This document shows positions 6,718-52,870 of a DNA stretch of 64,000 nt, one piece after another. Every line of letters starts with the position of its first letter. Position 1 is the first letter of the stretch. The notes beneath the pieces are model-generated. The model saw only the letters and a list, made by a program, of their open reading frames with translations. It searched no databases and was not told the DNA's origin. A program made the translations under genes and the position numbers. Origin of the DNA: a virus (lineage: Duplodnaviria; Caudoviricetes); IMG/VR virus record IMGVR_UViG_3300028840_001835; one strand, written 5' to 3'.

Positions 6718-9138
6718 TTATCCAAATACATAGCTGAGATTAATTTCCAATTGGACTATCTCATTATTAAGTGAATAGTTTGTCAAGTCACCATTCTCAT
6801 CAATGATGGCCGTTCTTATTGCTGGTGAAAGATCACTATACATCTTAAACATCACGTTCTTAAAATACTGTGAATCTCTCCATGGTTCTCCATTGATATC
6901 CAAGAATGATCCAAGACTAGGATCTAAGTTATCATATATGTTCTTCATCAATGTTTGATAAAATGTCTTGGTCGTTATATTACCAGATATATAATCTGCT
7001 GAATCACGATATCTGAATACATACGGAGGAACCGTGTCATAACTACTTTGCCAAACACCAGACACTTGCCCCGCGGAGGTTTCAAGTCTATTGAAAACCG
7101 AAAACTGATCTTCTGTTCCCTGAGGATTTGTCACTAATGAATATCCAGCATTTGAGAGATAGCTATTAATATATGTATTCAATACTGTTGTGACTGCCGA
7201 CGGTACCGCGGCACCGGATGTAACGTCCGGGTCACTTGCCCAATCTGTTATTAGTTGATCTGGCTTTGTTGCTTCAAAGTATATACTTGAATGTTTCACC
7301 TCGCTGGAATCGTGAATAAGATCATATATGTCAGAACGATGTATATTGACATTAAAGTCCGCATTCTCATTCAACCAATCATAGATGGAGTTGTTTACCG
7401 TCTGTTGAACAAGTGTTCTGTCCTCGAGTTTTCCTATAGTCACGGTACCTTTAAGTCTCATCTGTTGAACGATTGGTGAAATGTATAAATGTTTAACTGT
7501 CTGAGCTGATCTCTTATCTAGTTTGTTAAGCATCTGTGTTATTGGATGATCGTCATTGTTCTCTCTAAAATCTTGAACTCTCTCAACCTCTGGTTGCGGA
7601 TTCTCCTTCACAAGAATATTAAAATAAGCCTGTTCTGGAAATCCATCACCAGATACAACGCCAGATGATGAATCAACAACCTGAGAGAAATCATCTTCCT
7701 GCTCTAAGTATGCATTATGTAAATCAGCAGGCTGGAGTATGGTATATGTTCCACCTGAAGGAAAATTATAAAGCTCTCCGAGTGCACTAAAGAATGCTAT
7801 GTTAAAGAACCTAAAGTTTCCAAGTTGATTTCTATTACGAATCTCCTCTTGCTCTCCCCACGCCAGGGCGTTCTTTATTAGACCCCCAGTACCTCCAGTT
7901 GTCTGTGTCTTTAAATATGAGATATAATCCCTTGATGTAACCAATCTATCAAGAGAGTAAAACAATGCAGGGGCATTTAATTTCATTGACTCGACCTTTT
8001 CAAAGTCGGATCCTGTCACTATATTTCGTCTAAACTTGAATGTTATGTTATTGGTCAGGTTTACATTATTCTCAGGAGATATGAATGTTTCACTTGTCGT
8101 GATCTCGTTTCCAATTATACCAACCTCGTTTGCAGTCGCTCCCAGAGTCGATAGATACTGAATATATATGTTCTGTGATGTATTGGATAGACCTTTAGAC
8201 GCAAATCGATCATCACCGAAATATAGATTTACTCCCTCCTGCATATTAGAGGAGATCAAGACTATTCTAGGTATAGTTGAATTGTCTGGAGAAATCTTAT
8301 CAGGATTTACAAGGCTCCGTCTATCTATACTAAACAGGTTATCACCCGTTGCAGTAAGGGCCTCAGCTTGAGTCTGACCAATACCAACTTTTGTCAAATT
8401 CTCTGTAAGACTCTCTTCCTCTGTCTCAGCATCGTATCCTAGATCCTCCTCGCCATAGAAATTGGAGAATGTGGTATCATCGATCTTATATTTCTGAAAT
8501 AGTTGTCCAACTTGTGAGTTCTCAGACCCACCAAGAATCGTCTCCACTTTCATCTCACCTTGTAGAAGCTCAATGTCCACAAGATATCTTGTATCAACTC
8601 CACCAGTTACATCGAGAGGAATTGGTGCATCGCTTGCCGAAAGCACCACACCATAATCAATCTGTTTTGACCAATCCTGACTTGCGCCTCCAGTTATATC
8701 ATCAGATGTAAACGTGTATGTATATGAATTTTTAAGAATGAAGGGTATTCCATTTCCCTCAAATGCGTCCAATTTTTGAAATGTTATTGTATCGCCAGCG
8801 ACCAGTCCACCAGGCAAAGGACCCTTGAGAACAATACTCAAAGCCGAGTTTGCTGGTATCGGTCTCGTTGGAGAATACCCGAGCATTCTAGAGAGCTGAA
8901 TCACAGAGCTCCTTAACCGTGCGGTGTCCAGAAATTGCTCCTCCGCCCTTCTCTCTATGTAATAATTTGTTATATCGGTCGTTGCTGCAAAAATGTCAAG
9001 AAGCGTCTTTGCTATTGTGGAATCCCTAAAGTTTTCAAGATTGGGATCCTGATTTAATTCATATTCAATCTGACTACGGATCGAATCATAGTCCAACCCT
9101 GTGTAATTCAGGGGATTCCTTTTCTTGTTAGCTGCCAT
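6718..9138 (-). CDS. gp6: Baseplate wedge subunit gp6
   Basis: YTGLDYDSIR...EEQFLDTARLRSSVIQLSRMLGYSP and APALFYSLDRLVTSRDY motifs. Confidence 0.92.
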   Translation of the reverse strand: MAANKKRNPLNYTGLDYDSIRSQIEYELNQDPNLENFRDSTIAKTLLDIFAATTDITNYYIERRAEEQFLDTARLRSSVIQLSRMLGYSPTRPIPANSALSIVLKGPLPGGLVAGDTITFQKLDAFEGNGIPFILKNSYTYTFTSDDITGGASQDWSKQIDYGVVLSASDAPIPLDVTGGVDTRYLVDIELLQGEMKVETILGGSENSQVGQLFQKYKIDDTTFSNFYGEEDLGYDAETEEESLTENLTKVGIGQTQAEALTATGDNLFSIDRRSLVNPDKISPDNSTIPRIVLISSNMQEGVNLYFGDDRFASKGLSNTSQNIYIQYLSTLGATANEVGIIGNEITTSETFISPENNVNLTNNITFKFRRNIVTGSDFEKVESMKLNAPALFYSLDRLVTSRDYISYLKTQTTGGTGGLIKNALAWGEQEEIRNRNQLGNFRFFNIAFFSALGELYNFPSGGTYTILQPADLHNAYLEQEDDFSQVVDSSSGVVSGDGFPEQAYFNILVKENPQPEVERVQDFRENNDDHPITQMLNKLDKRSAQTVKHLYISPIVQQMRLKGTVTIGKLEDRTLVQQTVNNSIYDWLNENADFNVNIHRSDIYDLIHDSSEVKHSSIYFEATKPDQLITDWASDPDVTSGAAVPSAVTTVLNTYINSYLSNAGYSLVTNPQGTEDQFSVFNRLETSAGQVSGVWQSSYDTVPPYVFRYRDSADYISGNITTKTFYQTLMKNIYDNLDPSLGSFLDINGEPWRDSQYFKNVMFKMYSDLSPAIRTAIIDENGDLTNYSLNNEIVQLEINLSYVFG

Positions 9139-10562: not shown

Positions 10563-12068
10563 TTATTCATAAGCATAAGTCACCAACGTGACTCCCGTGT
10601 ACGGTCCTGGTCCTGGGGACGGTAATGAACCGACAGTTGGTATAGGAGCAATTACATTCATATTCAAAGCCAGTTTGATATATTTGTTCATTATTTCCCA
10701 AACCTCTCTCTTTCTAGTTTTGGAATCATCGGAGAATGATGTATTGGCTATCTGATTTGCACACGCTTTCCCCTGAGCGATAACCGCTGGAAAAGAAACA
10801 AACCCATGAAGTCCAGGACCTGTTCCCGGATCTGGCGGAACTATAGAGAGGGCTGCCAGGGGTCCAGTTGTCGGACTTAATCCAATTGTAAATGGAGGTG
10901 TATTTAACCATTGATTGAGTCCAGTAAAAAATCTATCAACACCGCCCTGGGCAAGACCAACATAAGTAGTGTTTTTTAAGAACTGTAATAATGTATTCTC
11001 TGGATTAAAATTCAATCTCGCCGCAAGAGGTCCTGCTGCAGGAGTCGGAACACCTGGCGAAACAATAACAGTTCCAGTACAATTTGCCTTCAATTCATAA
11101 TTCTCGTCAGTTGTGATGTATTCATATACACCCTGAGCTATATCCTCCCAACCGTAATTAGTATTCTGAGTCACGATCTGATTATTTGTTGTTGCTCCCG
11201 TTGGGATCGATGTTTCATATCCTCGTGCATCTTGTTTCTGTATCACTGTCTCCTGTGAGTCGAGTAACGGCTCATCGGCAACCTCTTCTGAGTTCTCTGT
11301 CTCTGTATGTACTTGTGATTGATTCAAATCTGTTTCATTTGTCACAAAATATTCGTCAGTAAGATACTGACTTCCTAATGTTCTTACATCAAAATGTACC
11401 CAAGTCGGTGCTATTCTTGCAGGCTCAAGTGCCTTCTTATTAGAATTGTTCCAACCAATTTGTGCGTTCATCTTTTCAACAACCCTTCTTCTGCAATCAT
11501 CACATTCTGTGTTTCCTCCCGGATCAATGTCTATGGCTTTTCCCATATGATTTGTACTCTGACGACCTCGTGCCTGATTATCTATTCGACATCTATAACC
11601 CGAGTTTAACGTCCAGTTATATTGAGGGTGATAAAAGAACACTGCACGAACAGCCCATAGTAACATTCGATGTATACCAAGATATTCCTTTTGGTGATAT
11701 GCTTCTATCTGGGGTTTTCCCGATCTATACTGACCATTAAAATCATTGTGTCCAAAACCATTATTTGTAGTCTGGCATGCTGGATCATTACATGGACATT
11801 TAATTGTGTTTTGAAATCTAGTAAATATTGGATATTGTATTGCAAATGTATCGGTCGCATCAAATGTTTGACGATCAGCAACACCGCTTGGTGTTATTCC
11901 CATAAAGTCTCTCTGAAATGCCATCACCGATGACTTGGTCTTTGCGGAAAACGTTCCATTAGGAACTGTAGCGTTTTTAAACCCAGCAAGACGAATCTGG
12001 AGCTCCTTTACATCGTCCCCACTCATTCCTTGACGGAGTAGTCTTTCTCCAAATACTTCACCAGCCAT
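10563..12068 (-). CDS. Peptidoglycan-binding domain + M15 Zn peptidase fused to an unknown C-terminal domain (lysin)
   Basis: LRQGMSGDDVKELQIRL...G.F...T..VMAFQR (PG_binding_1); SGYRC, HMGKAID (H-x6-D) and WVHFD zinc ligands. Confidence 0.85.
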   Translation of the reverse strand: MAGEVFGERLLRQGMSGDDVKELQIRLAGFKNATVPNGTFSAKTKSSVMAFQRDFMGITPSGVADRQTFDATDTFAIQYPIFTRFQNTIKCPCNDPACQTTNNGFGHNDFNGQYRSGKPQIEAYHQKEYLGIHRMLLWAVRAVFFYHPQYNWTLNSGYRCRIDNQARGRQSTNHMGKAIDIDPGGNTECDDCRRRVVEKMNAQIGWNNSNKKALEPARIAPTWVHFDVRTLGSQYLTDEYFVTNETDLNQSQVHTETENSEEVADEPLLDSQETVIQKQDARGYETSIPTGATTNNQIVTQNTNYGWEDIAQGVYEYITTDENYELKANCTGTVIVSPGVPTPAAGPLAARLNFNPENTLLQFLKNTTYVGLAQGGVDRFFTGLNQWLNTPPFTIGLSPTTGPLAALSIVPPDPGTGPGLHGFVSFPAVIAQGKACANQIANTSFSDDSKTRKREVWEIMNKYIKLALNMNVIAPIPTVGSLPSPGPGPYTGVTLVTYAYE

Positions 12069-12105: not shown

Positions 12106-12522
12106 TTATCTGGTGACAGACACCACCTCAGCGGTCTTGTCTGGAGTAGCATTATGATCCTTGAACATATCATTCGAGGATATGTATTCTACAATCTCTT
12201 TATGAAGTTCACTAATATAATCAATACCATTTTTCAATTCCCGTTCAACCTTTAAATATCTCTTTGCTCCAAGGGCTACATCGATCACCCTATCAAGAAG
12301 ATAATAAGCGTCCATAACACGACCAATAGAGTCTTTCACATTACCCGTTCTTAATGAACTCAATGCATCACTAAGTTTCTCGACCAATGAGTTGGAAATA
12401 TTCTCACTTAGTATTCCACGAAGTTGTCCTTCGATACAATTCATCCATTCATTGATTCTAGTCTCAAGACTCCCGAAACCACTTCCCTCTGTCTCACATA
12501 TTATGTATTGTTTGAACTTCAA
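12106..12522 (-). CDS. Putative internal head protein with capsid-targeting-like leader
   Basis: Starts MKFKQYIICE. Confidence 0.55.
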   Translation of the reverse strand: MKFKQYIICETEGSGFGSLETRINEWMNCIEGQLRGILSENISNSLVEKLSDALSSLRTGNVKDSIGRVMDAYYLLDRVIDVALGAKRYLKVERELKNGIDYISELHKEIVEYISSNDMFKDHNATPDKTAEVVSVTR

Positions 12523-12527
12523 TTCAA

Positions 12528-13403
12528 TTATCCTTCCAGATAATTCTTAAGGTTTTCGGAGACAGTCGTTTCGAGACCGCCTTTCAATCTTCCAATAACT
12601 TCATCGACATCCTGTTTGAGACAAAATGCACCAACAAGCAATTCTCTCAGCTGTGCAAATGAGAATCCATCTGTCTTTTCAGCCAACGCCTTAATCTCCT
12701 TGGTGGTTTTCTGACCCTTCAATTTACTTTCAAGATATGCGATACGTCCGTTGACGGGTGGATTATCTATCTCGATCTTTCTATCAAATCTTGAGGGTCT
12801 TAGAATCCTTGCAGGTAGTTTTTCTATGTAATTGGTCGTTCCCAAGAACAATACATTGTCCATCTGATTCTCTCCGTCGAACAATTCAAGTATAGAATGT
12901 TCACCATATCTAACGATCTCATCAATATCTTCCATCACACAAAGAATCTTTCTATCCTTCTCTATATCTTTGATCAATCCAAGAGAATCGGTAAGGAGTC
13001 TTCCCTCTTTTGCGATTAGAACTACGTTACCCTTCTTTATAGAATCTTCCATTGCCAATTTTAACAGACAGGATTTTCCGGAACCCGGAACACCATAAAG
13101 CAGAACTCCTCTCTTATGTGTAAACCCTAGTCCCTTGTAATCGTCCTTCAGTCCCCAGAACTTATCTATCTCCTCGAGTATCTTATTATATCTTGAGTCC
13201 TCAAATCTAAGAATCTCATCGGTGTTCATATCATGCTGCTCAAAGAATATACCTTGCATGTTTCTACCGATCTGATATATACCAGGGGGTATTGTTGGTT
13301 CAGTCACGACTTCACCGACGGGTTGAAAAGTGTTGTCCTTGACAATATATTTCTTGAAAATCTGTTTTCTCTTTCCTTCCGTCAGATATTTAATAAAGTC
13401 CAT
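12528..13403 (-). CDS. AAA+ ATPase (classic clade) with capsid-targeting-like leader
   Basis: Walker A GVPGSGKS, Walker B CVMEDID, SRH TTNY...LRPSRFDRKI; starts MDFIKYLTE. Confidence 0.9.
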   Translation of the reverse strand: MDFIKYLTEGKRKQIFKKYIVKDNTFQPVGEVVTEPTIPPGIYQIGRNMQGIFFEQHDMNTDEILRFEDSRYNKILEEIDKFWGLKDDYKGLGFTHKRGVLLYGVPGSGKSCLLKLAMEDSIKKGNVVLIAKEGRLLTDSLGLIKDIEKDRKILCVMEDIDEIVRYGEHSILELFDGENQMDNVLFLGTTNYIEKLPARILRPSRFDRKIEIDNPPVNGRIAYLESKLKGQKTTKEIKALAEKTDGFSFAQLRELLVGAFCLKQDVDEVIGRLKGGLETTVSENLKNYLEG

Positions 13404-13435
13404 AATTATCTCCTTGAATGATCATTCTACCTAAC

Positions 13436-13443
13436 TATTTATA
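13436..13443 (-). promoter_or_regulatory. T4-type late promoter TATAAATA
   Basis: Exact match upstream of the AAA+ ATPase. Confidence 0.8.
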
Positions 13444-13446
13444 AGT

Positions 13447-14190
13447 TTATGGCCGAACATAAGTCGCTCCCGGGGTTCCGTTAAGCTGACGTCCAACCGC
13501 TTGCGGAGCTCCTGTGAAATCACTTAAAGGAACATTCAATACTGGTTGAGTTGCTTCAGTTCCACCAAGTAGTATCTTACCCTTGGGAGCCTCTATACTA
13601 ATATCACCTTCCTCGGACTTCAGAGTCACGCTTCCCTTCATTGTTATTGAGAAATTTCCTGTACTTGTCTTTGTGTTACTTAGTGATATATTTCCGTCTT
13701 TATCTATTCTAAGAACCAGTCCACTTGAATGGGTGTATACAGATTCAAATGTACTTCTGTTTATAAAAAAAGAATCTCCTTCGTCTGTCTCGAAAAATAC
13801 CATCACATTGGGATAATCCACATCTTTGTCAGATGGAAGATGATTTACATTTAGAACCTTGGTTGTATACATTGGGCTATATACTTCGCCTTTATCAAAA
13901 TAAACTCTTACCAGAGAATCAACGGGTGGAACAACAAATGACCCAACAGTCGAACCCATGAACTGAAAATCCGGCTTTGCCCATGGTAGATCGGAGGTCT
14001 GGATATTTCCTTCATCAAATACTCCAAAGATCCGTATCCTGCATCGACCCAATTTATCAGGATCATTGTTGTCCTCCACCCTACCGGTGAACATCGTCAT
14101 CCTTCTTTCATTGAGCCGATTCTTAATGAAGTCATTCAGCAATTCCCCAATTTCTTTTTGGAAACCTTTATCTCTCAAATCATCAGCCAT
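13447..14190 (-). CDS. gp5: Baseplate central spike gp5 (OB-fold, no lysozyme domain)
   Basis: FTGRVEDNNDPDKLGRCRIRIFG...DLPWA...VPPVDSLVRVYF OB-fold; short beta-helix. Confidence 0.88.
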   Translation of the reverse strand: MADDLRDKGFQKEIGELLNDFIKNRLNERRMTMFTGRVEDNNDPDKLGRCRIRIFGVFDEGNIQTSDLPWAKPDFQFMGSTVGSFVVPPVDSLVRVYFDKGEVYSPMYTTKVLNVNHLPSDKDVDYPNVMVFFETDEGDSFFINRSTFESVYTHSSGLVLRIDKDGNISLSNTKTSTGNFSITMKGSVTLKSEEGDISIEAPKGKILLGGTEATQPVLNVPLSDFTGAPQAVGRQLNGTPGATYVRP

Positions 14191-27046: not shown

Positions 27047-27612
27047 GCCGTCCCTTTTATAAACTTATGAAACCTCTCTATAGCACCCTCTAAAGTCTTT
27101 GCAGTGTTAAACGCCCTATGTGTATTGGTGACGAAGGTTACGTTTCCCTTCTCATCTATACTCTTCCAAACAGCGGGCGTTGCCTGACCCTTTGGTCCAT
27201 TATGCCACATCGCCTTCTTATCTATGCAGAGCTTTCTCTCATCATCGGTGAGAGTTTTCTTATTCTCTTTCAATTTTTCAAAATCCAAATGACTCTCCCT
27301 AAGACAAAAATCTTTCAATGTCTTTTCAATTATCTTTGTGGTTTTCTGTTTGATGTTTATGCCCGTCAGTCTACTAAATAGTTCCCTTGACACCTTATTC
27401 TTTCTATGTCCGACGGCCATTAGTAATGATCCATAGTCTCTATCGTCAATGAGATTTTTCAATTTATCATACCAGTCCTTCTGTTGTCCACGGATAAGGT
27501 CTTTCTTAATCTTTCCAAAATGACCTCTCTTATAAAACTTCTCAAAAGTCTTTTCAAAAATCTTCTCTTCCTTCTCCTGTCGGTAGAACTGTTTGAAACT
27601 ACGCCTACTCAT
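27043..27612 (-). CDS. Basic hypothetical protein, possible internal head protein
   Basis: Starts MSRRSFKQFYRQE; K/R-rich; overlapping stop/start coupling. Confidence 0.55.
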   Translation of the reverse strand: MSRRSFKQFYRQEKEEKIFEKTFEKFYKRGHFGKIKKDLIRGQQKDWYDKLKNLIDDRDYGSLLMAVGHRKNKVSRELFSRLTGINIKQKTTKIIEKTLKDFCLRESHLDFEKLKENKKTLTDDERKLCIDKKAMWHNGPKGQATPAVWKSIDEKGNVTFVTNTHRAFNTAKTLEGAIERFHKFIKGTA

Positions 27613-28123
27613 TACATATACCTCCCTCGTCAGTTATCTTGAAATCCGCCTTGATTTCATTTAGAGAGTTTTTACTTTTAGCATCCTCAATGAGTTTTGC
27701 GACCTCTTTATTCGATAGAAAATTATTCACTGTCAAATTCTTTGGACCTCCCAGCGGTCCTGCTAATTTAAACTTTAGTTCAACTATGGTCTTGTCGAGC
27801 TCCCGAAGCTCTTTTATACTTGTGATTTTTACATTGGCGAGGGTAGCATACACCTCAAACATTCTTGGGGGAGAACCTAATTTTATATCATTTCCGAGCT
27901 TGGTGATCACATCATTAAGATTGGACACACAGTTCTTGATCTCCTTCTTCATATACTCGGCTTCTTCCAAAGTCATTCCTGACAAATCTTTGGACACAAG
28001 ACTTTCCTTTTTCTTTAGGACAGTCTTAACCTCCTCGACCTCTTCACCATCAAAGGTCGTCTCCAACATCTCGTTTATCTTTTCAAACGAGTCGTTAGTC
28101 TCTAATTTCTTCTTCCTCGGCAT
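27605..28123 (-). CDS. gp16: Terminase small subunit gp16
   Basis: PRMFEVYATL...IKELREL...NLTVNNFLSNKEVAKLI, matching the T4-like gp16 pattern; start refined to MPRKK. Confidence 0.75.
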   Translation of the reverse strand: MPRKKKLETNDSFEKINEMLETTFDGEEVEEVKTVLKKKESLVSKDLSGMTLEEAEYMKKEIKNCVSNLNDVITKLGNDIKLGSPPRMFEVYATLANVKITSIKELRELDKTIVELKFKLAGPLGGPKNLTVNNFLSNKEVAKLIEDAKSKNSLNEIKADFKITDEGGICNE

Positions 28124-28361
28124 ATATATCACCCACTATTGAATCTTCATCGAATTCAAGAAATTCTCTCGGTGGCCCTTCCACTTCATAGGGCTGGAAT
28201 GTCTCCACGTCCCTCTCGATGGTTATGCCAAAGAATGAAACCCTTGACGCCGATAGTATCAAAATACCTAAACATAACAATAAAAAGAACAGACCCCACC
28301 TGAGCAGCCTGAACCTAGCGAACAGACCCCAGACGGTTTGTATTTTTTGTTTCACTTCCAT
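28095..28361 (-). CDS. Small single-pass membrane protein
   Basis: Basic N-terminus, hydrophobic WGLFFLLLCLGILILSA, acidic tail; own late promoter. Confidence 0.6.
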   Translation of the reverse strand: MEVKQKIQTVWGLFARFRLLRWGLFFLLLCLGILILSASRVSFFGITIERDVETFQPYEVEGPPREFLEFDEDSIVGDIYAEEEEIRD

Positions 28362-28375
28362 AATGCTCTACCAAA

Positions 28376-28383
28376 TATTTATA
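28376..28383 (-). promoter_or_regulatory. T4-type late promoter TATAAATA
   Basis: Exact match; contains the gp15 stop. Confidence 0.8.
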
Positions 28384-29212
28384 TGAAGTCGATAAAATAA
28401 TCGAAATCCAGTAATGTTGCGCTCATTGTAAGGGTCTGGGTATTTCCAGATATATCGTAAGGAGCGGTAAATGTGGAGCTGGAATCCCATCCAGATGTAT
28501 TTGCTCCCCCGACCGCGGACAATCCTTGACCCATTGTTCCCGGATAGTATCTCGTTCTGATCTCTTTAATTAAACCATCGTCCGATAATTCTCTATATAA
28601 AAACGCCTTGACGTTGAGCTGAAGTACACCACGTACATATCTAATATTGTCCTCGTTTTGCTCAACAAGAAAATCTGGAGATATGCCTTCAAGAATGACT
28701 TTTATATCCCTCTCTATATTTAGAAATGAAAATTCCTTCACTCTTAAATATCGTGCTGGATCAAAGTAAGGAAGAATATTCTCCATTAGCTGTGTAAAAT
28801 GATTCATACTCTCGGTTCTTATCTCAAGTGAAAAACCGAGATCATATGGTCGTGGATTTAGATTCGATATAAACCTATCAATATCGTTCAATCCCAGAGC
28901 AGTGTTGTAAAACGTTCTTACCTCAGAAAGACCCGCCGCCCTATCTCCTGCGAAATTTATACTATCCCATGAGAGGGCCATCTTGGGCAAAGGCATATAC
29001 TTCTGTGCAGAGGGTTCTCCCCTCTTTATGATCTCATGATATTTATTCATATGACCAAACTGAAGGGACACTGGTATGGTCTTGACTTTTGTGGTCTCAA
29101 GGTAATCGCCCGTTTCAAAGTTTTCAACCACGAGTCCATTGAACTCATTTAACAAGGCGATAATTATTCCCCTTATGGTTCTTGGTCTAAAATTATCTGG
29201 TACTAATGCCAT
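28379..29212 (-). CDS. gp15: Tail terminator / sheath stabiliser gp15
   Basis: IPVSLQFG, LPKMAL, PRPYDLGFSLEI.T..M....QLMENILPYF.P. Confidence 0.88.
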   Translation of the reverse strand: MALVPDNFRPRTIRGIIIALLNEFNGLVVENFETGDYLETTKVKTIPVSLQFGHMNKYHEIIKRGEPSAQKYMPLPKMALSWDSINFAGDRAAGLSEVRTFYNTALGLNDIDRFISNLNPRPYDLGFSLEIRTESMNHFTQLMENILPYFDPARYLRVKEFSFLNIERDIKVILEGISPDFLVEQNEDNIRYVRGVLQLNVKAFLYRELSDDGLIKEIRTRYYPGTMGQGLSAVGGANTSGWDSSSTFTAPYDISGNTQTLTMSATLLDFDYFIDFI

Positions 29213-29398
29213 TTATCGTTTTGTCCTTACCACGTTTGATACATTATATTTTTTCTTTAATGCCTCAACATCGTTTGATGTATCTATTACATTACCATCT
29301 TTGTCCCAGACTCCATATCTTTTAATAGGTAGTCCTTTAGGAGGTTCTCCTATATCAGTAATGTAATATTTTTCAATTATAAAATCTTTCCAGTCCAT
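29213..29398 (-). CDS. Putative internal head protein
   Basis: Starts MDWKDFIIE|K. Confidence 0.6.
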   Translation of the reverse strand: MDWKDFIIEKYYITDIGEPPKGLPIKRYGVWDKDGNVIDTSNDVEALKKKYNVSNVVRTKR

Positions 29399-29409
29399 AA
29401 TTTAACTCC

Positions 29410-30207
29410 TTAATCAAACCATCCACCGAGGCCAGGCTGATTACTACTCTCCTCGCTTGAACCACTTGTATACAATACATCATCCTTCTTGTTGGTAATG
29501 TAATCACTCTGATCAAGATAGTCATCAACATCATTGACACCCGTTATCTCTGTCATAGCGGCGCTGGTGTCTGCCGATAGGCTAAGTTTCTGATCAAGCA
29601 TAGTTCTCACAGTGAAAGTCCATGAGTGTTTTCCCTGAAGGAACATCTCATCTTCCTCGCCAACATCAATTATCTCATAATATACACCATTAAACTCGCA
29701 ACGAATTATATCACCAACTTTAGGCGTTAATGCTCCATATACATTCCTTTGTGATTGTTGAGCAGGTGGATATAATGCGACACCACTTGTTGGATATTTA
29801 GAGGCCTCTGCAAAATGATTCTTACTAACATACATCGGAAAATTGTCCAATCCCTCAATACCAAATTTGGCGTATAGCTCCAGCTGCTTGGGTAATTCAA
29901 ACACTGCCTTTACAGGAAATCTTCTCTCTATTCTTCGAACATCGTCCTCACCAAAAAGGGGATCATAATTAACATCGTAGGTCACACGATAATACATCAT
30001 CGGATTGCCGTGAATGTTATTTGCCTCAGACAATAGAACATCATATAATCCACGATCCGCATCATATCTCTTATTCTGGAAAAACTGAAAATACTGATTA
30101 GGCATAGGATCTATAGTGGAGATCCTACTGGTCGTCCAGTTCGCTACAGTACCTTCTGAATCAGATTCTATAAAAGGTGATGTTGGTTGTCCAGATCCTG
30201 ATGGCAT
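29410..30207 (-). CDS. gp14: Neck protein gp14
   Basis: EANNIHG.PMMYY...DPLFGED...KFGIEGLD...PKVGDII.....YYEII.V...EMFLQGK. Confidence 0.88.
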   Translation of the reverse strand: MPSGSGQPTSPFIESDSEGTVANWTTSRISTIDPMPNQYFQFFQNKRYDADRGLYDVLLSEANNIHGNPMMYYRVTYDVNYDPLFGEDDVRRIERRFPVKAVFELPKQLELYAKFGIEGLDNFPMYVSKNHFAEASKYPTSGVALYPPAQQSQRNVYGALTPKVGDIIRCEFNGVYYEIIDVGEEDEMFLQGKHSWTFTVRTMLDQKLSLSADTSAAMTEITGVNDVDDYLDQSDYITNKKDDVLYTSGSSEESSNQPGLGGWFD

Positions 30208-30226
30208 ATTTACTCCTGTTTATTAG

Positions 30227-30234
30227 TATTTATA
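30227..30234 (-). promoter_or_regulatory. T4-type late promoter TATAAATA
   Basis: Exact match upstream of gp14; contains the upstream stop. Confidence 0.8.
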
Positions 30235-31345
30235 AGTTGATTTTTTTAGAGAATGTGGATGTTAGTCCACTTCTTTTAACCATGTAAGGTATCACCAACG
30301 TTATTGCATTCTCCTCTGTGAGTACATTCATCTCTATTTGATTCTCCAAAACTATGACACGTTTCTCCCATCTCTTTATAGCCCTAACAAGACGATCAAG
30401 AAGATCCACTGCATCCTGATACCCAATTTCCTCAAATGGAACTCTTGGAAGAATGGTTCCAAATTTAAGATTAAATACCCTCTCACCCCTTAATGTGGAC
30501 AGTATATTCTCAATACTCTGATTTATGGCATCCTGATTATATGCTTCTCCGACTGATATAACCTTCTTATGTATATCATACGCCCATTTGGGTTGTATCA
30601 CGTCCTCAGAAAGACCGAGTGTTAAAGAAATCTGTTCAACTTCTACATAACCTCCTATTCTAGGAAGCGGTAAATTTATATCTACGATCTCATTAAACTG
30701 TTTAACAATGGCTCCGATGTATGGGTTGGCAATAACTATGTTTGCGGAGCCGCTCTGTGATTTGCCCGCGGCTATAATAGTCGGGGTTGGAATATCAAAT
30801 AAAATAGTTCCAATCTTTGGACTTACAACCGTTCCAACACCAGATACACTTGGTGAAGGTGTCGTGGAAATGCCAACGGCACTTTGAACCTGTCCTTGTG
30901 TAACAATCTCGATTGAAGGAACATTCAGGTTAGAAATTCCTGTTGTAGGGGATACCGATGTACCAGTTCCAGAAACAAGAACCCCAAGAATTATATCAAG
31001 AACTGAAGAACCGATAGTCGGAAACGAACTATCCAGTTTTATGATCTGAGTATCGTCACCGGGATACGGTTCCATTGTATACGTACGGAACGGTATGGCA
31101 TCTTCATAGGTAACGGGTTCAGAGAGTAAAGCAAATTCATCGTCATTAAACTCAATAGCACCAGATACATCAAGAGTTTCATCTACGGCAAGAACGGTTC
31201 CGAGTAGCGGAACCTCTTCCTGACTAAATGTAAAATCTGCTGTATGGACTATGGTCTCATCATATACAACGGTACCAACAAGTGAAAATTCCTCTTCACT
31301 ATACTCTACAGTTGGAGTATATTCGATACCTACATCAAAACTCAT
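30230..31345 (-). CDS. Beta-repeat protein with C-terminal gp25 domain (copy A)
   Basis: AINQSIENILSTLRGERVFNLKFGTILP...AIKRWEKRV = GPW/gp25 signature. Confidence 0.8.
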   Translation of the reverse strand: MSFDVGIEYTPTVEYSEEEFSLVGTVVYDETIVHTADFTFSQEEVPLLGTVLAVDETLDVSGAIEFNDDEFALLSEPVTYEDAIPFRTYTMEPYPGDDTQIIKLDSSFPTIGSSVLDIILGVLVSGTGTSVSPTTGISNLNVPSIEIVTQGQVQSAVGISTTPSPSVSGVGTVVSPKIGTILFDIPTPTIIAAGKSQSGSANIVIANPYIGAIVKQFNEIVDINLPLPRIGGYVEVEQISLTLGLSEDVIQPKWAYDIHKKVISVGEAYNQDAINQSIENILSTLRGERVFNLKFGTILPRVPFEEIGYQDAVDLLDRLVRAIKRWEKRVIVLENQIEMNVLTEENAITLVIPYMVKRSGLTSTFSKKINL

Positions 31346-31350
31346 ATCTA

Positions 31351-32979
31351 TTAGACTTCGTTATAGTTTGGGACCATCATTCCAATTTGAGCATCATTGA
31401 CTATTATATCAATGGTTGTATATGTTGTTGGATGTTGGGTCGCATGAAAATAAACCCATTCTTTAGAAACGATAGTTTTTCCATTTAACATCTGTGACAT
31501 TGAACCCACCGCTGTGTAATAAAGATTCTTTGCCTGTCCATATGAACGATTGCCTTCGGCATTTGGCGAGGAATTAGAATCATATTCACCAACCACGGGC
31601 TTCATAACTATGTATTTACCCTCATCATTGGGAGCGGAGTCTTTTATTAACTGTTCCAACACATGACCGCCAATTCTTGAATAACAAAAATCATCAGTTG
31701 CATGTACACCAAATTCTTTTTGTCTAACACTTCTAACGGGAATACCCATTCTAACATAATTGTTTACTCCAGTCAATATATTTGTACCAAGTACATGAAA
31801 TCTTTGATAGTATGGGGAAAGTAACGACCCAGAACTATGTCTCTTGGTTAAAGTTTCATTCAATGATAATGTATCTCCAGCCGTAGCAGTCACCTGAAGA
31901 TAATCAATGGCTTCAGAACGATTAAGATTATATAAGAAATAAAAATTATCATCGGTAAAATTAGAACCCTCTCCTGTGTTCAAATATATCGTTGAGTCGC
32001 CGTCGTTGGCCGCTGCAGAAAGTGTACCACTTATTGTAGCCGCTTCGACAAGATTTAAGTCAGTCAACCATTCATCAAGAATATATGTAGACCACGCAGT
32101 TCCTACTCTAGTCTGAATTACAATACATTCATCGCCACCACGAAAATCATAAACAAATGCACCAGCATCAACAGTTCCAAGTGAATGAGCGCCAAACATT
32201 CCAAAACCAGTATGAATAGTTGTATCATAATTCATCCAAGTCTTAATATATATCTGTCCGGCAGTTCCAGTGACCATTCCAATCTCAACAAACTTTGCAC
32301 CAGAGTATGTTGTTGGATTCTGTTGATCGGATACAACTATATACGGGTCAACACTAATATCGTTCTTGATTCCAGCACCCGATTCCATATCAAGATAAGC
32401 AGCACCTCCTATGTATGTTCCACCCAATGATGGATTAGTCAAATACGATACATCCTTGTTTGCTGCTCCGGCAACTATGATAAATCTATCTTCTAATGTT
32501 TGTGAATTATAAAACGGATTGTTTACATATAGTTTTCTAAAATGCTTAACTATGGCTCCGTCAAAACCATCACCTGGGCTTGAGCTAACAGATTGTATAC
32601 CTGTCTGAATCACATCAGCAACCTCATCCCAGGTTGTTATTGAACTAAAATCAAGAGCCGATACACCCCGTGAGACTCCGCCAATACTTATCTGAAACTC
32701 CCCATCACTAACCGCACTTATTTCTGCCAACGTATCAAAACTTGTACCCAGACCATTATCATCTGTTTTCAACCATGCAACCTTATTTGGGGACGGATCT
32801 ACACTTGTATCGCTCTGATCGTCAATAATATACCAACCCGGACCGCCACTAACAGTTGCAGAGGGGCTCGCCACAGGCGTCCTTATGACCCAGTTCTTGA
32901 AATTGGCAAGAAGCCCATCGGCGTTTGTCGCTGAGAACCCTCTTCCTGTGCATGTGGACTGTTCAATGTTAAAAGCCAT
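31351..32979 (-). CDS. Virion structural protein of unknown function
   Basis: 542 aa, G/S/T-rich, in the fibre block behind late promoter 33004. Confidence 0.6.
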   Translation of the reverse strand: MAFNIEQSTCTGRGFSATNADGLLANFKNWVIRTPVASPSATVSGGPGWYIIDDQSDTSVDPSPNKVAWLKTDDNGLGTSFDTLAEISAVSDGEFQISIGGVSRGVSALDFSSITTWDEVADVIQTGIQSVSSSPGDGFDGAIVKHFRKLYVNNPFYNSQTLEDRFIIVAGAANKDVSYLTNPSLGGTYIGGAAYLDMESGAGIKNDISVDPYIVVSDQQNPTTYSGAKFVEIGMVTGTAGQIYIKTWMNYDTTIHTGFGMFGAHSLGTVDAGAFVYDFRGGDECIVIQTRVGTAWSTYILDEWLTDLNLVEAATISGTLSAAANDGDSTIYLNTGEGSNFTDDNFYFLYNLNRSEAIDYLQVTATAGDTLSLNETLTKRHSSGSLLSPYYQRFHVLGTNILTGVNNYVRMGIPVRSVRQKEFGVHATDDFCYSRIGGHVLEQLIKDSAPNDEGKYIVMKPVVGEYDSNSSPNAEGNRSYGQAKNLYYTAVGSMSQMLNGKTIVSKEWVYFHATQHPTTYTTIDIIVNDAQIGMMVPNYNEV

Positions 32980-33003
32980 ATCTATTCCCCTTATTATCGT
33001 TAA

Positions 33004-33011
33004 TATTTATA
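33004..33011 (-). promoter_or_regulatory. T4-type late promoter TATAAATA
   Basis: Exact match; contains the upstream stop. Confidence 0.8.
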
Positions 33012-35115
33012 AATTAATCTTCCTTGAGAAGGTAGAGGTCAAACCACTTCTCCTCACCACATACGGAATCTGGATAGTTAGTGCGTTCTCCTCGGTCAGT
33101 ACATTTAATTCGATTTGATTCTCCAAAACTATTATCCTTTTCTCCCATCTCCTTATTGCTCGTACTATAATATCCAATAGATCAACTGCATTCTGATAGT
33201 CCAAAACCTCAAAAGGCACGATTGGAAGTATTGTTCCAAATCTTGGATTGAATATTCGTTCACCTCTTAATGTCGCAATTATATTCTCTATACTTTGATT
33301 AATTGCATCGTCATTATATGCCTTTCCAACAGATACCGCTTTCTTATGTATATCTATTGCCCATTTTGGCTGTTTGATCTCCTCGGGGGTTGGATCGACA
33401 GGAAGAGTAAATTTCTCAATCTCTCCATGAATGTTAATTCTAAGCCAAGGCATATATATGGACATATCATGATTAAACTGCTTGACAATAGCATCAATGT
33501 ATGTAGCTGGAATGTATATATCTGCTGATATACTATTGATAGTTCCAACACTAATAACACCCAGGCCCGGTAAAAGTAAATCAGACACGCCACTGGTCAA
33601 TGTTCCAGTTATCTGTGTGTAAGGATTTGGAATATTCACATCAATCGCCTGACCAGAAACGACCAGTTGACCACTGGCTTCGATATATGGGACCGTTACA
33701 TCAATATTCATGGTTCCTGTATTAACAATTCCCTGAATAGTCGTTACAACAAATCCCGTGTCTATATCTATCGCACCATTATTGACACTCCCTTGAATTG
33801 TCGTTACAACGAACCCAGCATCAATTATTGATGATCCGGCTGTTACGACTGTTCCAGAGATTGATGTATATGGAACTATTGTATCAATATCTATAATTCC
33901 CGTGTTAATAATTCCCTGAATGGTCGTAGTGACAAAACCAGTATCAATTGTTGATATGCCAGCAGTTGTAATTGTTCCAGAGATTGATGTATATGGAACT
34001 GTTGTATCAATATTCAATTGACCAGAGTTTATAGTGCCGCTAAGTTCTGTAACCGGAGATGAAACGATCAAATCTCCACTTCCAGTTGGTAAGTTACTAA
34101 TTGGTTCTGCGTCCCATTGTATGAACTGCTCCTCATTAAACATGGCAGAATACAATGCACTTGTACTATGTCCCGATACATGAGTCCAATCCCAAAAACG
34201 AAATTCATCAATAGTGCCATCAAAAAAGTTCTCAAAATCAGGAGATATCCAAGTTGCACCAATCGTGTGATTTCTTGTTGTGTTAATGCCCGTTTCTCCA
34301 GCGACCGTCTCTAACTGCTCCTCGACACCATTCACATATAAAATTAAATCTCCTTCAGTCTGAAAAGATATCAATACATGATACTCAGTATCCGTGGAGA
34401 ATACATAATCAAACTCATGATAATTTGAACCCAAATCAAATTCTAACTTGGCATTTTCTGTTATACCTATATTAATTCTTTTACCGCCACCGTCCGGATC
34501 ATCACTTGAAAATATTGAATAAAACTCTGTTCCGCCGGGTATGGAATGTAATTTCATTATAAATTCAATTGAAAACTCCGTCATGTCATTTTCGCCACCG
34601 AAGTCATTAATATCATCAATATACGCATCAGAATCAATATCGAAATCGAATGCGGAATTTAAATGACCAGATGTTTCTGTAACATTGACTAATGTACCAA
34701 AGAAGGGATCAACGTCAATGTCTGAACTATTGATTGCTTCTCCAGCACTTGTTCCGCCATGATATACAATTGAATTATTTGCCCAAAGATCATCTACAGC
34801 CTCTGCAGTTGCGGACGAATTACCATACCAGAAATAATACTCATTATCTTCTCCCGGCCACCACTGATCAGAAGCGAACCAAATCTCTGCGCTTGCTGAG
34901 GATTCAAATCTAACTATCTCTATTGATTGCTGTCCGCTACCATCAGCCCCAGAAGTGATTCGGATGTCACCACCATCTGACCTAGCGTTGGCAAATACAT
35001 GCTGGGGAAGTGTTCTATGGGTTAACACAAAGGGAGCATCCGACCACTCTCCACCGAAGAAGGCACCCGAAGTCGTAAACTTAAACTTATAATTCCATCC
35101 GTCAGGAAACGCCAT
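33007..35115 (-). CDS. DUF2341 + LamG/concanavalin-like + beta repeats + C-terminal gp25 domain (copy B)
   Basis: ARSDGGDIRIT...EIWF (DUF2341); FSIEF...YHVL...LYVNG...FDGTIDEFRFW (LamG); SIENII.TLRGERIFNPRFG (gp25). Confidence 0.8.
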   Translation of the reverse strand: MAFPDGWNYKFKFTTSGAFFGGEWSDAPFVLTHRTLPQHVFANARSDGGDIRITSGADGSGQQSIEIVRFESSASAEIWFASDQWWPGEDNEYYFWYGNSSATAEAVDDLWANNSIVYHGGTSAGEAINSSDIDVDPFFGTLVNVTETSGHLNSAFDFDIDSDAYIDDINDFGGENDMTEFSIEFIMKLHSIPGGTEFYSIFSSDDPDGGGKRINIGITENAKLEFDLGSNYHEFDYVFSTDTEYHVLISFQTEGDLILYVNGVEEQLETVAGETGINTTRNHTIGATWISPDFENFFDGTIDEFRFWDWTHVSGHSTSALYSAMFNEEQFIQWDAEPISNLPTGSGDLIVSSPVTELSGTINSGQLNIDTTVPYTSISGTITTAGISTIDTGFVTTTIQGIINTGIIDIDTIVPYTSISGTVVTAGSSIIDAGFVVTTIQGSVNNGAIDIDTGFVVTTIQGIVNTGTMNIDVTVPYIEASGQLVVSGQAIDVNIPNPYTQITGTLTSGVSDLLLPGLGVISVGTINSISADIYIPATYIDAIVKQFNHDMSIYMPWLRINIHGEIEKFTLPVDPTPEEIKQPKWAIDIHKKAVSVGKAYNDDAINQSIENIIATLRGERIFNPRFGTILPIVPFEVLDYQNAVDLLDIIVRAIRRWEKRIIVLENQIELNVLTEENALTIQIPYVVRRSGLTSTFSRKINL

Positions 35116-35124
35116 TCAATACCC

Positions 35125-38100
35125 CTATAAAATTATCTTCCTAGAGAACGTACCTGTCAGACCACTCCTGTTTATGATGTATGGTATCTGGATTGTCATT
35201 GCGTTCTCTTCCGTCAATATGTTCATCTCGATCTGGTCCTCAATGACCGTTATTCGTGTCTCCCAGAACTGTATGGCCTTGAGCAGATCGACAAGCAGTG
35301 CCTCGGCGTCAGCATAATCCAGTTGTGAGAAAATGGTGAGTGGTAACACAGATCCAAAGAACGGTGAAAATACTCTCTCACCTCTAAGCGTGGAAAGTAT
35401 ATTCTCAATGCTATTATTTATAGCTTTCTCATTAAGAACATAACCTGTTGTTAAAACGTCCTTTGATATATCCTCTGCCCATATCTGTGTATTCTCCCTC
35501 TCGGCGGGTATCACTATGGTCGTTATATTTCTCTCAAGTAGACCATCAATGTCAGTAGTTGGTTTTGGTATTTCAATGTCAATCGCACCTTGTATAGGAA
35601 CAGCACCCACTCCACTTACAATCGTAAAAGGTATTATTAAATCACCTGTTATACGATTAACAACGCCCGAGCCGGAACAACTAACAAATGGAATTATTAG
35701 ACTACCAGTTACACGATTGACTGTTCCTTGTATGTCAACCTCTGGAACTGGTGTCTGGACATCAAGAGAATCACCAGAAACAACAAGCTGACCAGTACCT
35801 TCAACATCAACCGCTGGTATGTCCACATCAATAGAATCCCCAGAAACCACTCTCTGACCAGTTCCATCAATTTCCGGAACTGGTATTGATATGTCCGCTT
35901 GACCAGTATTATTTGACGCAGATATGTCTAGAATTATCGAAGGAATTGCCACATCGAGGGCACCACCAGATACTACTAATTGACCGCTTGCTGTTATGTA
36001 TGGGATCGGTATATCGACATCAATGACACCACCATTAACAACACCTTCAGCATCGACAATCACAAAACCGGCGTCAATTACGATCTCGCCATCATTAATA
36101 AGTCCATTTGAAACAATATATGGGATAGGAACATCAATGTTTAGAATTCCTTTATTTACGATCCCTTGAACATCGACTGATACAAATCCTGTATCTATCG
36201 TGATCGTTCCTGTTGTTTCTATTAGACCCGTACCAGATGTAACAACAAATCCGGTGTCTATATCTATAGTTCCACCCGTTGCTGCTTCACCAACACCACC
36301 AATCTCTGGAATTGGTATATCTATATCTATGTTACCCTGATTAACAATACCCTGGGAGGATATTACAACAAAACCCGTATCTATGTCAATTAAACCAGTA
36401 TTTGATACACCACTTGCAGTGATGTATGGGACAGGCGTATCAATGTTTAATATTCCTTTATTAACAACGCCTTCTGCGTCAACAATAACCCAACCGGCAT
36501 CTATGACTATCTGACCATCATTGACAAGTCCCTGGGCGATAACATCGACCGCGGGTATCACAAGATCAGTTAAACCAACCGTCGAGATTGTTCCCGTTCC
36601 AGATACATCAACAAACCCAGTATCTATATCTATCGAACCCTGTGTTTCTGCCGTGCCTGTAGCAGACAGATACGGGACAGGAATAGTTATGTTTATGTTA
36701 CCCTGATTTAAAACACCCTGAGAAACTATATATGGAACTGGCACATCTATGTCAATCGTTCCACGATTAACAACGCCAGATACATCGACATCGACCGCTG
36801 GAATTACTATGTCAAGGGCTGTTCCAGAAACCACCAATTGACCGGTCGCCTGAACCTCAACCGCCGGGATCACAACATCAAGAACGTCAGCAGAAACAAC
36901 TAATTGCCCAACAGCGTCTATGTATGGAATCGGTACATCAATATTCAGGGTTCCTTTATTCACAGTTCCTACTGCGTCAACAACGACCCATCCAGCAACT
37001 ATGACTACCTCGCCATCATTGACGAGACCCTGGGCATCAACCGATACAAACCCAGTATCTATATCTATCGAACCCTGCTTCTCAGTCGACCCAGTCGCTG
37101 AGAGATAAGGGACAGGGATATCTATGTTTATGTTACCCTGATTTACAACTCCAGTAAGATTAGAATCGACCGCTGGAATTACTATGTCAAGGGCTGTTCC
37201 AGAAACCACTAGCTGCCCAGAGGCAACAATGTATGGGACTGGTATATCTATTGTTACATCGCCACTATTCACAACCCCAGTAACATCAACATCAACTGCA
37301 GGGAGTATAACATCCAATGATGTAGCAGATACAACAAGTTGACCCACCAATGACGCCTGAATAGCAGGAATAACAACATCAAGGGATAACGCAGAAACGA
37401 CCAATTGACCAGAGGCTTCGATATATGGAACAGGAATATCAATGTCCAAGGTTCCCTTGTTCACAACTCCTTCGCCATCAACAACCACAAACCCGGCGTC
37501 AATTACTATCTCGCCATCGTTGACAAGACCATTAATATCCACATAAGGAACAGGAATATCTATCGCTATTGTACCCGCGGTCTCTATTAAACCAGTCGCA
37601 GACGTATATGGAACCGGTACATCAATGTTTAGTGTTCCTTGATTTACAACACCGCTTGCTACAACATACGGAACGGGTACGTCTATGTCAATCGTTCCAA
37701 CAGATTCAATAATACCCGTTGCTGATAGATACGGAACTGGAGTATCTATGTCTATGTTACCTTGATTTACAATTCCCTCACCATCGACAACCACAAATCC
37801 AGCATCGATCACTATCTCGCCATCATTGACAAGCCCGCTTATATCTACATATGGAACGGGGATATCAATATTCAGAGTGCCTTTATTGACAACTCCAGAT
37901 ACATCAACATCAATTGCTGGAATTACAACATCAAGGGAAGTTGCAGATACAACAAAATTCCCAACAGCATCTACATACGGAATAGGAACATCTATTACAA
38001 TCGTTCCCTGAACTTCTACCTGTCCCTGACCGCTAGTGTATGGAACCGTTGTATTAATATCGAGGGAGGTCGCAGATACGACAAGCTGACCAGCTGCATC

Positions 38101-42685: not shown

Positions 42686-43927
42686 TTAAATCAGGTTGGT
42701 CAAACCAGCAACGGCGAACTTCGTGTAATAACGAGATGCACCAAGCAAATTGCTAGTTATGGCATACCTAGACATAACCCCGATTCTTGGAGTGAAATCT
42801 TCCTGAGCCATAGCCCTGTTGAACAGACCGGTTACATAAGGCGAGAAGATAATACCGGCATCGGCAGTACCAGGACCCTTATATCCAACCAGAACGTTGT
42901 TATCAGTGTTATAGGTGTCACGGAAGACCCTAATTGTTCCGTTCAGTGTTCCAATCTCAGCGAATGTGTTTGAAGGATTCACATTGGCTTTGTTGGCAGT
43001 GAACAAACCATTGTTAGACAGTGCCTGCAGAGCAGTTGCAACCCTTGTTGAAACAACAACAAAGTTACCAACATCACGCCTCGTTCTGGTTCCAATGTTA
43101 TTGGACTCGAGGATTATCTTGTTGGCGAGGTTAGCGAAATGCTCCTGGGTCCAACGACCGCTTGATGCAGAGGCAGTGTAGGTACCTGCGTCAGACGCAG
43201 CGTCCTTCATGGCCTTCAACAGTTCCCTGTCGAGCTCAGCCTGAACCTCATACTGGAGAACATTCACCATCTCTCTCTCAATGTCCACACCGTGCATCGC
43301 TTTGATGTCCTGAGCGGATTCGAGTGAGAAACTAGCAGCCAGTTTCCTGGTCTTTGCTGTGATAGCAGTCTGATCAATCTTGAGTCCGAGTTCCGGAGTC
43401 TTAATCAGAGATGTATCGGTGTTGTTTCTTACAATGTTCCATGCTTCAGCGGCTGAAGTGTCAACGCCTGTTCCAGCATCAGCTGTACCAGATGTACCAC
43501 CAGCAGAAGTAGCATCGGAGCCAGTGTATCCAGAATACTGAGGCACAACATCAAATGCAGCTTCTTCACTATTTCCATCGTCCGCATAAATGAAGCGGAG
43601 AGCATAGGCGAGCCCAACGGGACCCGTCATGGCCTGCACGCCCACAACTTGGTTGGCGAACAAAGCAGGAAATGTGCGTCTTACCAGAGCCAGAGAGATC
43701 GGCGAAAAAGCACCGTCCTGCCCAGCGTGAGTCTGAGAAGCCACAGAAGTTGTGATAGCCTTACTACCTTCAAAAAGTTCTTCCTGAAGGTCAGCAGTCT
43801 TTTGGTTTTCTAACAAAATGGCCATGTTTTCTTTTACATAGTCATCAGAAATGTCGCCGACTGACATCCTTCCGATGTCTTCCCTGCTCCAATCTTCGAC
43901 CAGCTTTCTAACATAATCTTTTTCCAT
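42686..43927 (-). CDS. gp23: Major capsid protein gp23
   Basis: MAILLENQ, LVRRTFPAL.A..VVGVQAMTGPVGLAYALR, AQDIKAMHG.D.E, QAELDRE, YKG...DAGIIFSPY, IGVMSRY; start refined to MEKDY (SD AGGAG). Confidence 0.98.
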   Translation of the reverse strand: MEKDYVRKLVEDWSREDIGRMSVGDISDDYVKENMAILLENQKTADLQEELFEGSKAITTSVASQTHAGQDGAFSPISLALVRRTFPALFANQVVGVQAMTGPVGLAYALRFIYADDGNSEEAAFDVVPQYSGYTGSDATSAGGTSGTADAGTGVDTSAAEAWNIVRNNTDTSLIKTPELGLKIDQTAITAKTRKLAASFSLESAQDIKAMHGVDIEREMVNVLQYEVQAELDRELLKAMKDAASDAGTYTASASSGRWTQEHFANLANKIILESNNIGTRTRRDVGNFVVVSTRVATALQALSNNGLFTANKANVNPSNTFAEIGTLNGTIRVFRDTYNTDNNVLVGYKGPGTADAGIIFSPYVTGLFNRAMAQEDFTPRIGVMSRYAITSNLLGASRYYTKFAVAGLTNLI

Positions 43928-43974
43928 TTTATTATCTCCTTGTTGCAAAAAATCAAACCTAAATCAGTTAAAAA

Positions 43975-44964: not shown

Positions 44965-45621
44965 TTATTTTCTACGTCCAGCCCAGCCGACCTTGATGTT
45001 ATCAAGAAAATCACTAAATGCTGCCGCGATCTCTCTGGAACCGTTTTTCTTCACGTTATTCTCCAAAGTATCGACTGCCTTCTCCACGATTCTGTTGTTA
45101 TTTATGATGAACTCTTTGTTCTCCAAGATACCATCAACAAAAGCATCCGGGGCCGATGGGTCAGCAACTATATCAACTGTTATAAGTTTGAAATCATCAT
45201 TCACCTTCGGACCATTAAGAGAACCTACACCCCTTGTCGATACACCGAGTTTTGTTCCGGCCTCGAGTAATGTATGTGCGATTCGTCCCTTTGGCGTATC
45301 CAGAATCTTTGCGACACCAATCCCGTTGTTTCCTTCCATAGAAAGAGATTCAATAAGATGGGACACACGTTCCAGATTTACTGTTGGTGACGGAGGATGG
45401 TCAAGTTCACCAAATGACCTTTTCTCTTTAATCTTTTCTTTGTTGAAACATTCAACCTCTCTCATAAGGAGGTTCTTCTCGTAAATTCGACCATTTCTAT
45501 TCTTGACCTCTGCTTGAAGAAAAGGACCTTTAATCCGAAAAGCCTTAGCTTTTCCATTATCATCCTGTTCACATACAATGTCAAGGTCTTGATGTTCGAT
45601 ATATTCCGTAATAAGTAGCAT
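44965..45621 (-). CDS. gp21: Prohead protease gp21
   Basis: KGPFLQAEVKNRNGRIY, GELDHP, VSHLI, TPKG, LGVSTRGVGS, DIVADPSAPDA. Confidence 0.96.
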   Translation of the reverse strand: MLLITEYIEHQDLDIVCEQDDNGKAKAFRIKGPFLQAEVKNRNGRIYEKNLLMREVECFNKEKIKEKRSFGELDHPPSPTVNLERVSHLIESLSMEGNNGIGVAKILDTPKGRIAHTLLEAGTKLGVSTRGVGSLNGPKVNDDFKLITVDIVADPSAPDAFVDGILENKEFIINNNRIVEKAVDTLENNVKKNGSREIAAAFSDFLDNIKVGWAGRRK

Positions 45622-52575: not shown

Positions 52576-52576
52576 A

Positions 52577-52861: not shown

Positions 52862-52870
52862 ATACATCTC

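Follow-up and report, generated by a model that had tools for sequence, protein, structure and literature searches.

Head assembly and maturation in tailed phages are taught as energy-free until the terminase packages the DNA. In phage T4, the capsid targeting sequence (CTS) MKTYQEFIAE works through the scaffolding core (PMC8442874) and is removed by the prohead protease (PMC8442874; PMC3012670). Proteins joined to the CTS, whatever their nature, are retained in the expanded capsid (PMC8442874), and the T4 internal proteins are delivered into the host (PMC3012670; PMC8442874). BCS1 orthologues in jumbo phages were described by Iyer et al. 2021, who speculated that they translocate folded head-packaged proteins (PMC7824862). 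The idea that an AAA+ ATPase is addressed to the capsid is not wholly new, as this speculation precedes the present analysis; it was put forward without evidence from leaders, fusions or gene context (PMC7824862). No experimental report of a packaged or prohead-associated AAA+ ATPase was found in the literature. What is new in the present comparison of sequences is that leader-tagged free-standing ATPases and fused ATPases group as one clade, that the leader tracks the genome in which it occurs, and that free-standing forms are found in head modules.

The ATPase is encoded by a complete virus record in IMG/VR, of 202,503 bp and with terminal repeats. The window, by which we mean the whole stretch of 64,000 nucleotides that was analysed, corresponds to bases 84165-148164 of this genome, on the minus strand. 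The phage is a distant T4-like myovirus, and a megablast search with 20 kb of the window returned no match among cultured phages. Besides the major head protein and the prohead protease listed in Table 1, the scaffold and portal genes are in the window, as are sheath, tube, tape measure and baseplate genes. The protease (218 aa) and the scaffold (280 aa; 43988-44830) are separate genes here. Two further genes of the window are worth recording for their composition: a late 494-aa protein with a collagen-like G-x-y stretch (GLPGKPGARGEAGPPGKDGRDGTPGKG; 50358-51842), which may be a fibre, and a 79-aa ORF composed nearly entirely of Glu, Asp and Lys (58283-58522).

Table 1. Features of the ATPase locus and of associated genes, in window coordinates.
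Feature	Position	Strand	Basis or remark
138-aa ORF, TTG start, leader MKFKQYIICE	12106-12522	-	TTG 5 nt past the ATPase stop, coupled
AAA+ ATPase gene, YjoB/Bcs1-like, 291 aa, 33.3 kDa	12528-13403	-	PF00004, AF2 model, homologues
Sensor-1, second region of homology and arginine fingers (N191, R199, R202, R205), TTNYIEKLPARILRPSRFD, residues 189-207	12783-12839	-
Walker B ILCVMED, residues 153-159, order ED not DE	12927-12947	-
Walker A GVPGSGKS, residues 104-111	13071-13094	-
Beta-rich N-domain and linker helices, residues 16-95, family-specific	13119-13358	-	Conserved in alignments, AF2 model
Leader codons 1-9, MDFIKYLTE; predicted protease cut after E9, before G10	13377-13403	-	Fit to T4 CTS motif; cut inferred
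Ribosome-binding site AAGGAG	13410-13415	-	6 nt before the ATPase ATG
T4-type late promoter motif TATAAATA	13436-13443	-	33 nt upstream of the ATPase ATG
gp23-like major head protein	42686-43948		~35% identity to cyanophage and Melnitz capsid proteins
gp21-like prohead protease, presumed leader-removing enzyme	44965-45621	-	phrog_207, E 2e-66
Small-gene cluster with ATPase-type leader	52156-58230	-	e.g. 52871-53101, 56355-56648, 56674-56979, 56984-57184, 57958-58230

The protein is an intact classic AAA+ ATPase, as had been claimed in the original prediction. Its score against the Pfam AAA family PF00004 was 49.6 bits (E 7e-13; gathering threshold 21.2), and the residues invariant across 52 homologues (G104, P106, G107, G109, K110, E158, N191, R199, R202, R205 and D207) take in the Walker A and B motifs, sensor-1 and the arginine fingers. 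The AF2 model had an overall pLDDT of 84, and in this full model the N-domain consisted of strands at residues 18-56 and helices at residues 70-91; modelled alone, the N-domain gave a poor model (pLDDT 61, pTM 0.25). In total 201 homologues were found, with identities of up to 77%. Among GenBank phages, tblastn retrieved full-length relatives only as gp14 of Xanthomonas phage phiXF1 and in three unannotated huge-phage contigs. In phiXF1 (PP475461; locus L001, 5806-9822) the AAA+ module is the C-terminus of a 1338-aa protein and has 43% identity to the window ATPase; phiXF1 is alone among cultured phages in having a close relative, and offers an experimental handle. Another homologue (L081:8774-10588) is interrupted by an intein that includes an HNH endonuclease (Pfam Intein_splicing, E 3e-10; HNH_3), positioned ahead of the AAA domain match and near the P-loop.

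A profile search placed the ATPase in the classic clade with p97, VAT and YjoB. The best structural matches were YjoB (PDB 7w42; Z 20.7, 252 residues) and mitochondrial Bcs1 (PDB 6u1y, 9gsn and 8tp1; Z 19.6/19.1/18.9), followed by the proteasomal Rpt subunits (Z 17.9), so that the margin in favour of YjoB and Bcs1 was a modest 1-3 Z units. For these two proteins 225-252 residues could be aligned, with an identity of only 20-25%. The YjoB alignment covered residues 11-275 of the ATPase model, and the alignments of both YjoB and Bcs1 reached into the strands of the N-domain. The order ED in Walker B, present in the window ATPase, is a feature of Bcs1. As in YjoB and Bcs1, few residues separate beta2 from Walker B, and a conserved aromatic pore loop is missing: pore loop 1 (aromatic-hydrophobic-Gly) was absent, and the loop at residues 132-136 (KEGRL) was variable, with no conserved aromatic residue in 52 sequences. 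The lack of this loop in the sequences argues against a canonical threading unfoldase and in favour of a chaperone for folded clients; the description of the protein as an unfoldase in the original prediction is therefore doubtful. No hydrophobic segment that might act as a transmembrane anchor was found in residues 1-95. The ATPase is predicted to be soluble and, because it has no membrane anchor, would not strictly count as a Bcs1 orthologue. The top viral structural match, in BFVD, was an AAA+ protein of Atu_ph07. Similarity between the jumbo-phage examples and the window ATPase was confined to the AAA core (26-28%), which does not in itself establish family identity.

The N-terminal nonapeptide of the ATPase matches the pattern [WFY]xx[YFW][LIVM]xE, as does the T4 CTS. 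Among the 400 crudely called genes of this phage, 15 had the motif within their first 12 residues, where ~0.8 would be expected from its internal frequency; a looser pattern returned 20 genes. The leaders among the small genes at 52-58 kb include MKWKKYLTE, MNWKEYISE, MNWKEYLKE, MKFTDYVTE and MRFLDYIGE, and the claim that the ATPase has the same leader as these small proteins was borne out by the common motif. Genome-specific leaders of this kind offer a plain criterion, readable from the sequence, by which packaged and possibly injected proteins of uncultured T4-like phages can be predicted. The loosened pattern also fits a 284-aa P-loop protein encoded outside the window (beginning MKTFRKFVEEKEIPNL...SPGVGKTT; 59612-60466 of the whole genome, minus strand). 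Its N-terminus may be the native end of a clamp-loader-type protein and not a leader, and serves as a warning of false positives.

Among the leaders of this genome, Leu was encoded by five codons and Glu by GAG and GAA in a ratio of 10:6, and the DNA upstream of the leader genes was unrelated, the ribosome-binding site excepted. As synonymous codons vary freely and the upstream DNA is unrelated, the leader is conserved as a peptide and not as DNA. This bears on the explanation that the common N-terminus carries no signal at the protein level and results from constraints that translation initiation or recombination places on the 5' ends of genes. Early codons rich in Lys or Glu can favour expression, but in the leaders it is the residue classes that are conserved, above all the hydrophobic positions and the terminal Glu, and the three different leader types described below all end in the same way. 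The explanation at the DNA level is largely refuted by the codon analysis, and we regard it as extremely improbable.

The original prediction had made it an issue whether the leader is part of the conserved fold, and the leader was found to lie outside it. In the AF2 model the pLDDT was below 50 over residues 1-11 and was 39 for residues 1-10. Alignments with homologues begin at ATPase residues 10-16, behind the leader, and among the closest homologues the linker between the leader and the KRKQ(I/V)(F/Y) motif ranges from 1 to ~35 residues. In YjoB of B. subtilis, the nearest solved cellular relative, it is residue 92 that aligns to residue 11 of the model, the N-terminal part of the ATPase being much shorter than that of YjoB. 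On the grounds of the low pLDDT, the alignment starts and the variable linker, the leader is not part of the ATPase fold.

The motif TATAAATA occurs 43 times on the coding strand genome-wide, against ~13.6 expected, and lies upstream of 35 genes. As the portal, scaffold, capsid, tube and baseplate genes are among these, it behaves as a T4-type late promoter. It was enriched at leader genes (5/15, compared with 30/385 for other genes; p 0.006). The ATPase was thus correctly described as standing behind a late promoter of its own, and the claim that the next gene also bears a leader agreed with the opening residues of the downstream ORF. The leader of this ORF is equal in length to the T4 CTS and identical to it at positions 1, 2, 5, 8 and 10. 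The 138-aa ORF had no Pfam or PHROG family match. In L003 and L007 the ATPase is followed by genes that are homologous to each other; no similarity between these and the 138-aa ORF could be detected. It is not claimed as a conserved partner of the ATPase, as no homologue was detected in related loci.

The leaders of related phages were compared in a set of 80 viral loci encoding relatives of the ATPase and in five whole related genomes (G001-G005). A type A leader, MxFxxYLxE, was present on the ATPase and on its neighbours in L003/G001 and L004/L007/G002, and a type B leader, MSKAxxLLxxIxE, in L005, L006/G003, L010 and L020/G004. A third type, xIExAIDM, was found in G005, with a similar one in L013. 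Each of the three types is common to many neighbouring small genes and ends hydrophobic-x-acidic, and mixing of types A and B between the ATPase and its neighbours was observed in 0 loci. In an unbiased BLOSUM score matrix, in which the present genome was designated G000, the block structure was clearest for G000 to G003 and G005; the ATPase leader of G004 matched six genes of G003 and only one of G004. A type A or B leader was carried by 21 of the 28 closest full-length homologues and by none of those ranked 66-120. A gp21-type protease (phrog_207) was encoded in all five related genomes. On these sequences, the leader of the ATPase covaries with the leader family of its own genome, a relationship that comprises only three leader types, or about three independent events, with types shared among related phages.

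Several other features of these related loci were recorded. L003 and L007 each have a large leader-tagged protein (682 aa and 553 aa, respectively) adjacent to the ATPase, and neither matched a PHROG family. The gp21-like protease of the type B and type D phages forms the N-terminus of longer products, namely proteins or open frames of 520-730 aa (L010:4040-5602, L020:16769-18424 and L005:11673-13337, and also in G003-G005); these are probably protease-scaffold fusions, unlike the arrangement in the window. Upstream of the ATPase region in G005 (L012:2500-4000), ORF translations such as AGSIPAPSTN suggest the presence of a tRNA gene cluster.

A tree of 57 AAA+ modules, built by maximum likelihood, placed the window ATPase in a 16-member clade (support 100/100) which holds every leader-bearing form together with fused forms (five/six). 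One of these fusions is the 1277-aa protein of L022, in which a head-maturation protease (phrog_18299, E 2e-31) is joined to the AAA+ module and a further 740 aa, and whose gene is flanked by those for the portal (E 3e-69) and the major head protein (E 2e-45). It has 39% identity to the window ATPase over residues 14-274, the N-domain included. L019 likewise has a 917-aa AAA+ fusion, with a portal fragment on one side and the major head protein on the other. Free-standing ATPases of the clade were located 0.8 kb upstream of a gp21-like protease and a capsid gene in L010, between a putative portal and the protease in L020, and two genes upstream of the portal (E 1e-34) in G005; in L005 and L006 the ATPase precedes homologues of the putative portal of L020. 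In T4, the interval from portal to protease is occupied by the core genes 67 and 68. By sequence, the leader-tagged free-standing ATPase and the fused forms are one clade linked to head modules. The more distant homologues have acidic N-termini (e.g. ELNEIL), replication-type neighbourhoods and no leader in common with their neighbours, and the link to the head is therefore claimed for the 16-member clade only.

The same set of genomes allows a different use of the leader to be weighed, in which it is the mark by which the ATPase recognises clients in the cytoplasm, so as to fold, hold or hand over tagged late proteins, its own copy serving for self-association or autoregulation. Packaging would then not be needed. 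This would fit the presence, in each of the six genomes analysed, of many tagged genes together with the ATPase, the handling of folded clients by YjoB/Bcs1-type ATPases, and the fact that T4 uses its CTS without any such ATPase, which makes the ATPase an extra. Against it, the leader fits the T4 CTS, which acts through the scaffolding core; the type B phages have tagged genes and an ATPase placed between portal and protease; and the protease fusion of L022 puts the module inside the prohead machinery. We consider recognition of cytoplasmic clients to be decidedly unlikely as the purpose of the leader.

The position of the window ATPase differs from that of the other clade members, being in a baseplate operon, between the gp5-like spike and a cell-wall hydrolase. 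The spike (13447-14190) itself has the OB domain (PF04717) only, and a separate 501-aa protein (10563-12068) has a peptidoglycan-binding domain and endolysin-like matches. Such a position, and that of phiXF1 gp14 among tail-fibre-like and Ig-like structural genes, might indicate a chaperone for baseplate or tail assembly, like the AAA+ ATPases of extracellular contractile injection systems (Afp15/Pvc15-like), with the leader being incidental. However, in the nearest relatives, G001 and G002, the gp27-like, gp5 and gp6-like genes are in the same order with no ATPase between them, and the ATPase is 23 kb to over 200 kb away from the baseplate genes, among leader-tagged genes. The cassette of late promoter, ATPase and 138-aa ORF (12106-13446) lies between gp5 and the hydrolase in this phage only (compared with G001 7016-8408 and G002 27328-37899). 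As the syntenic baseplate genes of G001 and G002 are without the ATPase, the baseplate position is a lineage-specific insertion of a late-promoter cassette and is not evidence of a tail function; the promoter of the cassette fits such an insertion, and other members of the clade are in head modules. The baseplate-chaperone reading was rejected on the grounds that the gene position is not conserved in G001 and G002, and we regard it as very improbable.

The predicted addressing of the ATPase to the capsid is well supported by these comparisons. This part of the original prediction, that of an address to the capsid interior, is supported by the covariation of the leader, the head-module clade, the gp21-type protease in 5/5 related genomes, the late promoter and the location of the leader outside the fold; the unfoldase part is doubtful, given the missing aromatic pore loop. 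That the protein is packaged is inferred, as are the site of cleavage, its substrates and where it acts. We consider it fairly probable that the protein is a YjoB/Bcs1-type chaperone whose leader takes it into the scaffolding core, where the prohead protease would cut after Glu9. In this scheme, the ATPase would be made late from its own TATAAATA promoter and brought by its nine-residue leader into the prohead scaffolding core, as is the case for the T4 internal proteins. A gp21-like protease would then cut after Glu9 (YLTE|G), and inside or at the prohead ATP would be used to hold, arrange or release bulky folded proteins. The many leader-tagged cargo proteins, or the scaffold itself, are possible clients. 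A further 11 [LIVM]xE sites were counted within the ATPase, and it could be degraded like the scaffold instead of being trimmed once.

By analogy with T4 CTS fusions, the ATPase may also be retained in the head and reach the host together with the DNA. A filled capsid is not expected, on general reasoning, to supply ATP, and the work of the ATPase would therefore be done before DNA packaging or after ejection. Another explanation is that the ATPase is purely injected cargo with no role in assembly, which is ejected with the DNA and has an early function in the host, e.g. refolding co-injected enzymes after their passage through the tail or dismantling a host defence complex. CTS cargo does stay in the T4 head, internal proteins do reach the host, and ATP is available there again; but the fusion to a prohead protease, and the slot beside protease and scaffold in other phages, suggest a role in maturation, and passage through the tail would require a ring ATPase to travel as monomers and to reassemble from few copies. 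The fusions to a protease speak for work in the prohead, and the behaviour of T4 CTS fusions allows delivery to the host. An exclusively injected effector seems to us unlikely.

A more general proposal, which we put forward tentatively and hold to be possible at most, is that the whole clade provides an ATP-dependent chaperone step in the assembling capsid. The prohead would be reached by a cleavable leader in T4-like phages and by fusion to the maturation protease or scaffold in other phages, and the chaperone would load, arrange or release bulky folded cargo. If this is true, capsid maturation would not be purely self-driven in these phages. With a prohead-addressed AAA+ chaperone, the picture of head assembly would gain an ATP-using step or a co-delivered chaperone, and it would be easier to understand how dozens of folded enzymes come to be loaded into the capsids of some phages.

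Compared with the T4 CTS system, the cargo considered here is different, being a 33-kDa AAA+ ATPase and not a small basic DNA-associated protein. The set of leader-bearing genes is also several times larger than in T4, and packaging and cleavage are predictions in the present phage. The likeness lies in the leader of ~10 residues with the pattern aromatic-x-x-aromatic-(L/I)-x-E, present on unrelated proteins of one phage, in the gp21-type protease that is encoded alongside it, and in the late expression of the genes. The protease fusion of L022 belongs to the same AAA+ clade; the window ATPase, by comparison, stands alone, and a cleavable leader would bring it to the prohead in place of covalent fusion.
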